A DNA stretch of 64,000 nt from a plasmid. Positions 36,001 through 39,000 of the stretch are shown one piece after another. A program made the position numbers. Each line of letters starts with the position of its first letter. Positions within the stretch are counted from its first letter, which is position 1. The stretch is from assembly GCF_053078305.1 (NCBI RefSeq), contig NZ_CP166875.1; one strand, given 5' to 3'.

Positions 36001-39000
36001 TCAGCAAATAAAAAAGCATATATTAAGATAGCATAAAAAAAAGTGAAAAAAATATTTATTTTCAGTAGTTGCCATGGAGATTTATCATTTTTTAATCTAA
36101 GATTTTTACATGTGTTTAAAAATAAAAGAATGGCAGTGAAAGGAGCTGTTTTTACATACAGACTCAATGTTTTGCTAAATACTGGGGTGTTTTGTGAGTA
36201 TATGGCAGGTAGGTCATTTGCTCTCAATGCTATATAGTTTAATATATTGGATGTTGGATTGTGGATATATATAATGATTATTGAGAACATTGGGATTAGT
36301 GAAATTATAAGGAAGTAAAACATCTTTGTTGCTATTTTATTTCCTTTGTCTGTTTGGTGGTGTTTATTTATCATCTGTTTACCTGTAAATTTATTATATT
36401 AAAGATTTTGATGAATGGCTATGGTTTATTTTCTCTTTAGAGAGTAATATATGAAACTTGGCAATCCTACTGGGATTGCCATTAATAAATAGAACAATGC
36501 AGATAACTTGCATAAGTACCAGGGCTCTTTTTTTAACTTTGTATTTTCTTTGATATATCTAGATATGGTTAATTTAGAGTATGGATATAGCAATACATAT
36601 ATTGACGATATAAAGATAAATAACAAAGGAGTGTTATCAGTGTCGTTAAATATTAAAATAAGAATCCATGGTATAAGTGATTCAGGTAAATTATGTAGGT
36701 AGTATTTTAAATGCATAAGTATTTTTACTTTTGTCGGAAAGGGATATGAAAATAATAATTTTTCTAATTAAAATATTATTCTTGTCAGGATGTCAAGCAA
36801 ACTATATTCGTGATGTACAATGAGGAACCGTTGCGTCATCTTCGTCTTCTGAACTGACGGGGATCGCGGTTCAGTAGAAAAGATCAAAGGATCTCTTGAG
36901 ATGGGGTCCCAAGCCGGAAACCTGGATTTTTCCGCTGGATTTTTCCGCGACCAGTAACGGCGTGGGGTGTCACATAAATGACCGATTGAGTGACTGTCAC
37001 TGAAACAACGATTTCTACATCAGATTTCGTCACATAACCCGTCACCTATTGGGGTCAGTTTGGATATAGAGAATTAGGGGGCTGGCGCTCAGTGGAACGA
37101 AAACTCACGTTAAGCAATGTTTTCTTCCTCCGATGCCTCTTTTTGCCCTTTAGTCACCAGTTCTGCCAGCGTGAAGGAATATGGCCGAGCATATTGATGT
37201 GTCCGTGGCAAAGTGGTGAGAGGCGTGCGATATCTTCATCATTCACGATTTCCCCCTGTGCCCTGAAATGGTCCAGGGCAGCCTGCATATAAATAGTGTT
37301 CCATAATACGACGGCGTTAGTCACCAGCCCCAGTGCGCCCAGTTGATCTTCTTGACCATCGGTATATCGCTTTCTTATCTCACCTTTCTGACCGTGACAG
37401 ATAGCTCTGGCAACGGCATGGCGACTTTCTCCCCGGTTAAGTTGGGTCAGGATGCGCCAGCGGTAACGGTGATTTCATATTGAAGATAACTGTTGTACAA
37501 TTTAATTGTACAACTCAAAGAGGAAGCACTATGTTTACATGTAACTATAGCCATGCTCGCGATAACCTGGCCTCGTTGCTCGAGCTGGCGGTTGATGAAA
37601 ATCAGCCTGTTGAGATTCAGCGCCGTAAAGGTGGCGCGGCTGTACTGGTTGATAAAGACGCTTTTGAACGATACCGTAAAGCGGCTCTTGATGCTGAGTT
37701 TGCTGAGATCATGCAAAGTCATGGGACGGCCTATACGGAGCTTTCTAAGCGATGAAATTCGTTAGTTCACAGGAAATGATTGAGTTTCATGACCGCTTGA
37801 TTTCGCGTGATGGTGGCGTGGCGGGTATGCCAGAACCCGGTCGCGCTGACGCGATCATTCATCGTGTTTTGAACATGTATCATTATGAAGGTGTGACAGA
37901 TATTATGGATCTGGCTGCCGTGTATTTAGTTGCTATTGCTCGTGGTCACATTTTCAACGATGCAAATAAGCGAACAGCCTTGTTTGTTGCACAGGTTTTT
38001 TTAAAACGGAATGGTATACATATTATTAGTTCGCGTATTTCGTTTGATGAAATGCAAATTATCGCTTTGAATGCTGCAACAGGAGAATATAACTGGAAGA
38101 TGGTTTCTGACCATCTTAAAGCCATTATTTTAAATTAGATATAGATATCCAATCAGCAGCATTTTACAATCTACTGAGCAATGTAAAAATCATATATCTT
38201 TTTGCTATATAATTTCTGGCGTATGTGCTCAATTCAGACCTGACACTTTTCCGCTTCCTCGCCCACTCGCTCACTACGTTCGGTCGCTGGGGCTGCGGCG
38301 AGCGTTTGTAAGTTTTCTCCAATACTGACGACGTGCTTCCTAGGACAATGAGTCTCTCAGAATCGGTTTCTCGAAGTGACGAGCGATCAGAATGGAGACA
38401 AATAAATTCGGGAAACGAACCTTCACGGTAAGTTTTGTCACATTTATCATCCCTAAACATGAGAATTATCACCAAAACTAACCACCCAACAAACAGCAGC
38501 GCCGGGAGCAGCATTATAAAATCATGTACAGTGTTGCGTAACGACATGATAAGTTCTCAATATGCTCTTTACCAGATTATACCAGTGATACTTTAACGCA
38601 CCATCATTAATGCTAATGTATGCATACATTAGCATTAACATGCTGACAGCAACAAGCGGCGGATTTACGTCTGGATAACGTAAATGATTGCGGTATACAG
38701 GCCAGGCGGTCAGATTTTCAGCCGTGCCTGTTCCTGCAGCAGTTCCAGATGATATGTAGCAATAGCGTTTACCACCCCTGCCGTCATCCGTGCGTCGGCG
38801 ATCGCTGAGTGTGCCTGCCCTTCCCAGGTCAGTCCGGCCTGGCTGGCAGCACAGGCCAGTGAAATCGTGCCATAGCGGTTGGTGGCCCCATAATATCCTG
38901 CAGCCAGCTCCATCGCACAATATACCGTCAGTTCTTCCAGCCAGTCAGCCGGATCGCTATGTGCGGCAGCAGTCTGTTTCAGAATGCGGATATCGAACCG

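Follow-up and report, generated by a model that had tools for sequence, protein, structure and literature searches.

The 64-kb stretch of plasmid DNA analysed here (the window) harbours, next to its phd-doc module, what very likely remains, in inert form, of a replicative transposon of the Tn3 subgroup: an intact end repeat and the broken 3' end of tnpA, left behind by a five-step history (probability about 0.8). The whole remnant, repeat plus tnpA tail, amounts to 390 bases of the ~4950 bp found in Tn3. Such a feature is already known, both in kind and in this very instance, which is a RefSeq pseudogene. In plasmid pFHI_NMBU_11_02 (NZ_CP045714.1), which is 100% identical to the window over positions 36800-37560, PGAP annotates the equivalent of 37110-37465 as 'Tn3 family transposase; frameshifted; incomplete; missing N-terminus'. 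That annotation marks the pseudogene, but neither the repeat nor the nested left ends nor the junction described below. The coordinates of the features are collected in Table 1.

Table 1. Sequence features in and around the transposon remnant, in window coordinates
Feature	Position	Strand	Basis or remark
Colicin lysis gene, premature TGA at 36821-36823	36746-36877	+	neighbour, outside the transposon remnant
Miniature element of ~205 bp (imperfect terminal inverted repeats of ~32 bp), left 148 bp only	36903-37050	+	complete copies elsewhere
Outer 26 bp of another Tn3-family-type 38-bp repeat	37051-37076	+	cut by the Tn3-like insertion at 37077
Complete 38-bp Tn3-subgroup terminal inverted repeat, tnpA-side end	37077-37114	+	outer end at 37077
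Tn3-family transposase pseudogene, last ~12% (Tn3 TnpA residues ~880-1001)	37110-37466	-	tblastn, DNA alignments
Breakpoint, tnpA remnant to upstream phd-doc edge	37466-37467	.	A at 37466 fits both sides
phd-doc toxin-antitoxin module	37467-38344	+	Pfam, plasmid comparisons
Promoter-like site	37474-37501	+	wholly right of the junction
Perfect operator-like palindrome	37492-37514	+	wholly right of the junction
phd	37531-37755	+	Pfam PF02604 PhdYeFM_antitox, above cut-off
doc	37752-38138	+	Pfam PF02661 Fic/DOC, above cut-off
ColE1-like fragment in the phd-doc tail	38246-38304	inverted relative to the colicin plasmid remnant	85% identical to pVR50C

A preliminary description of this region had placed a complete 38-bp Tn3-type repeat at 37077, and its position proved exact. 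The repeat, GGGGGCTGGCGCTCAGTGGAACGAAAACTCACGTTAAG, starts with GGGG and ends with ACGTTAAG, as 38-bp repeats of the Tn3 family do. It matches the Tn3 repeat at 36 of 38 positions, T5G and A9G being the sole differences, and the inner 26 bp (positions 13-38) show no mismatch. The truncated copy of plasmid pToe17-1 has an identical repeat (38/38), and this variant, GGGGGCTGG, is thus common to both plasmids. Since the same variant occurs in the pToe17-1 lineage, the two substitutions are lineage features rather than signs of decay. Allowing up to three mismatches, the full repeat is unique in the window, and 100 shuffles of the window yielded no occurrence of it, nor of its inner 21 bp. Its outer flank (37072-37076) reads AATTA and is AT-rich; Tn3 targets are usually AT-rich.

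Next to the repeat lies the C-terminal end of a transposase, as also described previously. Using the 1001-residue TnpA of Tn3 from plasmid pMB7536_2 as a tblastn query, we recovered residues 872-974 (92/103 identities) and 975-1001 (20/27), with a joint E value of 4e-56. The match is colinear with Tn3, at 89% amino-acid identity. Although the tblastn match starts at residue 872, DNA alignments indicate that real homology begins at residue ~880. The tail comprises 354 nt on the minus strand (37113-37466), i.e. ~118 codons rather than the 'about 110' first proposed, and it is more damaged than had been thought: the frame is shifted by a 1-bp deletion near 37180, and 12 bp, or four codons, are gone at 37143/37144. 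The stop codon (37110-37112) is inside the repeat, as in Tn3. Thus, of the ~1000-residue DDE transposase gene that adjoins the repeat, only the part for residues ~880-1001 is left, frameshifted and lacking four codons. The remnant is a descendant of the Tn3 family but not a working member of it.

The other parts of a Tn3-type transposon are absent from the window. A blastn search with a complete Tn3, from repeat to repeat, gave 37077-37466 as the sole match, and no resolvase gene tnpR, res site, cargo or bla was detected. The preliminary description had called for a partner repeat to be sought, but no second inverted repeat (GAGGGCTGACGCTCAGTGG…) was found in the 64-kb window, whether as the full repeat with up to three mismatches, as its inner 21 bp or in the whole-Tn3 blastn search. 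The remnant is unable to move by itself. We also considered a 1004-residue ORF at 6719-9733 as a second transposase and rejected it, as it codes for an RTX toxin of the haemolysin type.

On its right-hand side, the remnant stops abruptly at phd-doc, as proposed, but at 37466/37467, 16 bp further than the ~37450 given originally. The window aligns base for base with the copies of pAUSMDU00010532_01 and pToe17-1 and with Tn3 up to 37466 and diverges beyond. Across the breakpoint it reads ...GCGGTAACGGTGATTTC, where the Tn3-lineage copies continue as ...GCGGTAATCTTC; the normal continuation of tnpA beyond the segment corresponding to ~37400-37466 is …GCGGTAATCTTCATC…. In other phd-doc plasmids, the sequence upstream of phd is ...CCCCC(C)TTACTACGGTGATTTC, of which 10-18 bp more than in the window are shared and are not Tn3-like. 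Because the breakpoint is located inside a codon-bearing region and the two sides overlap by 1 nt only, it does not correspond to the end of a mobile element. It looks like the endpoint of a deletion or of illegitimate recombination, in agreement with the recombination scar postulated at the outset, tnpA being cut mid-gene. IS21 was envisioned as the cause of the junction, given that the tnpA of pToe17-1 is cut by IS21 and that pEco118UIb has IS21 near phd. This was rejected, as the IS21 of pEco118UIb stops 159 bp before phd.

The breakpoint precedes the phd start codon by 64 bp and the promoter-like site by 7 bp. The phd and doc genes overlap by 4 bp (37752-37755). With overlapping antitoxin and toxin genes, a promoter and a palindromic operator, all predicted from sequence, the module has the features of a type II phd-doc system. 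It is present in 766 plasmid records and many contexts, with 47 of the records covering at least 80% of the query, whereas the junction region (36800-37560) occurs in only nine plasmid records, all of them from E. coli and mostly from human stool. A discrete phd-doc cassette with fixed ends was also considered and rejected, as other lineages share the 10-18 bp more on the left and extra sequence on the right.

The ColE1-like fragment in the tail of the module resembles the region just past a ColE1-type origin (CTTCCGCTTCCTCGC…GCGGCGAGCG), and the number of CCACTCGC repeats in it varies among plasmids. That the colicin plasmid had simply lost its own origin by deletion was rejected: given its inverted orientation and its identity of only 85% to the colicin K plasmid, the fragment must have come from elsewhere. 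At 38344/38345, phd-doc gives way to backbone DNA of the IncF/IncI type (3'-5' exonuclease region), starting with ACAATGAGTCTCTCAG. This junction was found in no PLSDB plasmid, the siblings carrying other DNA beyond it. The backbone harbours a perfect 32-bp palindrome at 38607-38638 (TTAATGCTAATGTATG/CATACATTAGCATTAA). An Rfam scan of 33000-41000 returned only spurious, sub-threshold microRNA matches on this palindrome.

On the left-hand side, the stop codon of the colicin lysis gene ends at 36877, which leaves 199 bp to the repeat. The distance of about 200 bp reported at first was thus correct, but this gap is not plain colicin-plasmid DNA; it holds two further truncated mobile-element ends, one nested inside the other. 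Homology to colicin K plasmids ends at 36902, in the stretch just upstream of the ColE1-type RNA II promoter. There begins the ~205-bp miniature element, of which complete copies are found in ColE9-J (plasmid region L007, 3187-3391), pB771 and pSTEC866; the coordinates in regions L008 and L009 are 2982-3186 and 3000-3204, respectively. The copy of the window contains a 13-bp tandem duplication (36922-36947). Judging from its title, the paper of Lau and Condie (1989) on the 'degenerate transposon-like structure' of ColE9-J probably deals with this element. The next 26 bp are identical, at 26 of 26 positions, to GGGGTCAGTTTGGATATAGAGAATTA/TTGTACTATAAG of Enterobacter plasmid pECL_A (L018, 6002-6039), whose 38-bp repeat in full is GGGGTCAGTTTGGATATAGAGAATTATTGTACTATAAG, with relatives in regions L017, L019 and L020. 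All the nested elements lack their right-hand parts.

At 36902/36903, 37050/37051 and 37076/37077, the junction falls precisely on the GGGG tip of a different element that exists in complete form elsewhere. Such junctions are the signature of insertions. No target-site duplications were seen around the 205-bp element or the other nested ends.

Several observations were made on these elements and on the colicin region. The repeats of the 205-bp element begin with GGGGTTC, and the element is scattered among large IncF plasmids as well as colicin plasmids, part of it being matched by 191 plasmid records; a solo end related to it is found in L017 (16484-16516). In three plasmids, an IS110-family IS is located exactly at the inner edge of the GGGGTCAGTTTGG…TTGTACTATAAG-type repeat (L018, i.e. 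pECL_A, 6002-7625; L017, 16621-18382; L019, ~6003-7600), while the repeat is uninterrupted in L020 (4151-4188). IS4321 and IS5075 target Tn21-type repeats, and the placement of the IS110-family elements resembles that. In pECL_A, a second such repeat follows the IS in inverted orientation, as in a small two-ended element. In the colicin region (34322-36877), the colicin is of the S4 type: it combines a colicin S4 translocation domain (Pfam) with a receptor-binding stretch that is duplicated and a pore-forming domain. Two immunity genes come next, of the colicin A/U type (35841-36374) and the colicin K type (36426-36716), and the flanks of the colicin are ~97-98% identical to colicin K plasmids. 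The premature TGA of the lysis gene is GGA in the colicin K plasmid pVR50C; PGAP flags an 'internal stop' in the identical plasmid NZ_CP045714.1, and the gene is intact in pSTEC2018_553-c.

The most economical history to account for these pieces would be one deletion preceded by three nested insertions. First, a module from a colicin plasmid of the ColE1 type would have joined a large IncF plasmid. The ~205-bp miniature element would then have inserted just upstream of that module's RNA II promoter and would in turn have received a second element, which had a 38-bp repeat of the Tn3-family type. Into this repeat, 26 bp from its tip, the Tn3-like transposon would have inserted. Lastly, a single deletion or illegitimate recombination event would have run rightwards from tnpA codon ~880 and ended just upstream of the phd promoter. 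With this step, everything else of the transposon (the remainder of tnpA, tnpR, res, cargo and the other repeat) would have been lost, along with the right parts of the two older elements. The identity of the individual pieces, the positions of the four junctions, the lesions of the pseudogene and the lack of other Tn3 parts in the window are direct observations; the order of the events and the single deletion are inferred, as we found no plasmid in the pre-deletion or in an intermediate state. That the deletion stopped beside an intact phd-doc promoter is likely to reflect survival bias, as damage to an addiction module kills the carrier line, a role for selection that we infer. The position of the breakpoint so close to the phd promoter could also be a coincidence.

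Could the tnpA tail and phd-doc instead be parts of one decayed Tn3-family transposon, with phd-doc as its cargo and the far repeat kept in sibling plasmids? Tn3-family transposons that carry toxin-antitoxin genes are known, Tn4662a among them (PMC4133298). Furthermore, the sibling pSTEC2018_553-c has a second Tn3-like repeat (GAGGGCTGACGC…) at a distance of 3.1 kb, inverted and with the G at position 5 that is specific to the lineage, and the pair brackets phd-doc. However, that second repeat is a solo relic, reduced to the repeat and ~29 bp of interior and cut by another Tn3-type repeat. The same truncated relic also adjoins senB in region L020 of an E. coli plasmid, where both phd-doc and the tnpA tail are absent, and the stretch of L020 that contains it matches three more plasmids at 100%. 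The ends in pSTEC2018_553-c, two Tn3-like repeats and two from the other element, are staggered, not nested. This also counts against the history proposed above, since related copies must have recombined at least once more in the lineage; recombination among related relics better explains the arrangement of the repeats. In addition, the junction falls at tnpA codon ~880 and not at a gene boundary, the longer sequence shared upstream of phd by other phd-doc plasmids is not of Tn3 origin, hundreds of phd-doc plasmids are devoid of this Tn3 remnant, and the window lacks the tnpR and res of such a transposon. In toxin-antitoxin-carrying members of the family, the module is found inside two repeats, beside the resolution module, within an intact unit; the window shows no such arrangement. 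We thus regard phd-doc as a very improbable cargo. Even less credible is the arrival of the block from 37077 to ~38344 by one-ended transposition, from an exact repeat start to a variable end. Its left end is indeed an exact repeat tip, and one-ended transposition with variable endpoints has been documented for the Tn3 family (Avila et al. 1988, as cited in PMC4133298). However, this mechanism leaves the internal junction between tnpA and phd unexplained. The 5 bp that flank the block differ, AATTA on the left (37072-37076) and ACAAT on the right (38345-38349), which means that there is no duplication, and the sibling plasmids have the left flank in common but different right flanks.

The remnant might also have been kept for a function, either to confer immunity to new Tn1/2/3 insertions or to supply regulatory signals for phd-doc, but we find this doubtful. 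In its favour, the transposase-binding part of the repeat (positions 13-38) is the part that is identical to Tn3, and extra Tn3-type matches never number more than one in any of six sibling plasmids. Within the Tn3 repeat, Amemura et al. in 1990 and Nissley et al. in 1991 are reported to have mapped immunity to the inner binding domain. For target immunity to operate in this family, transposase and repeat have to interact (Nicolas et al. 2010, as cited in PMC10250215). Nevertheless, the near-identity of the nine carriers stems from recent descent, which makes conservation uninformative on selection. A full Tn3 is found in none of seven carriers, against a background of ~25%, but this difference is not significant (P ~0.13) and the carriers are not independent. 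As for regulatory signals, hundreds of other plasmids have a complete phd promoter although they lack the remnant. There is likewise only a small chance that the solo repeat is still recognised by a Tn1/2/3 transposase from another replicon. If it were, the virulence plasmid of a Shiga-toxin strain might be a poor target for blaTEM transposons, owing to target immunity, and rare one-ended transposition might carry the phd-doc or colicin genes along.

Enterobacterial plasmids routinely contain truncated ends of Tn3-family elements, and the remnant alone matters little; its practical use is as a lineage marker. Together, the junction 37466/37467, the repeat variant and the two deletions single out a few IncF plasmids, for the most part from Shiga-toxin-producing E. 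coli of human origin, which have in common a 17.8-kb island with the colicin S4-like cluster and phd-doc; pSTEC2018_553-c shares positions 20594-38344 of the window at 98.8% identity. The nested ends also record that mobile elements disrupted, by insertion, the ColE1-type replication region of the captured colicin plasmid. The RTX gene, together with the origin of most siblings in Shiga-toxin strains, suggests that this is an enterohaemolysin virulence plasmid.

Compared with known transposons, the remnant has ~88% DNA identity to the thousands of Tn1/2/3 copies of plasmid databases and is 93-95% identical to a handful of other, unnamed copies. Its parent thus belongs to a rare sibling lineage of Tn3 rather than to Tn1/2/3 itself. 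The closest relative is the truncated copy of the E. coli plasmid pToe17-1 (NZ_CP069094.1), with 95% DNA identity and the same repeat, GGGGGCTGGCGC. The Salmonella plasmid pAUSMDU00010532_01 (NZ_CP045959.1) has a near-full copy that is 94% identical to the remnant at the DNA level. From the latter we recovered TnpA residues 1-1001 and tnpR, and it is 87.6% identical to Tn3 at the DNA level. Unlike the window, neither copy has the 12-bp or the 1-bp deletion. The copy of pToe17-1 is located in a cdiA orphan toxin region, which IS21 has cut, and that of pAUSMDU00010532_01 in a sugar-metabolism region, both contexts being unrelated to that of the window.

The tnpA-side end of the blaTEM transposons Tn1, Tn2 and Tn3 has the same 38-bp repeat architecture, with the stop codon inside the repeat. 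In contrast with the remnant, these transposons also carry a second repeat, tnpR, res and bla. Solo 38-bp repeats of the Tn3 family are common in sequence databases (Szuplewska et al. 2014, PMC4133298). TIMEs, the Tn3-derived inverted-repeat miniature elements described there, are two-ended; the remnant, with its single repeat and part of a tnpA gene, is instead an autonomous transposon of the Tn3 subgroup that has been truncated. It is the neighbouring 26-bp fragment and its relatives that resemble the repeats of TIME-like small elements.
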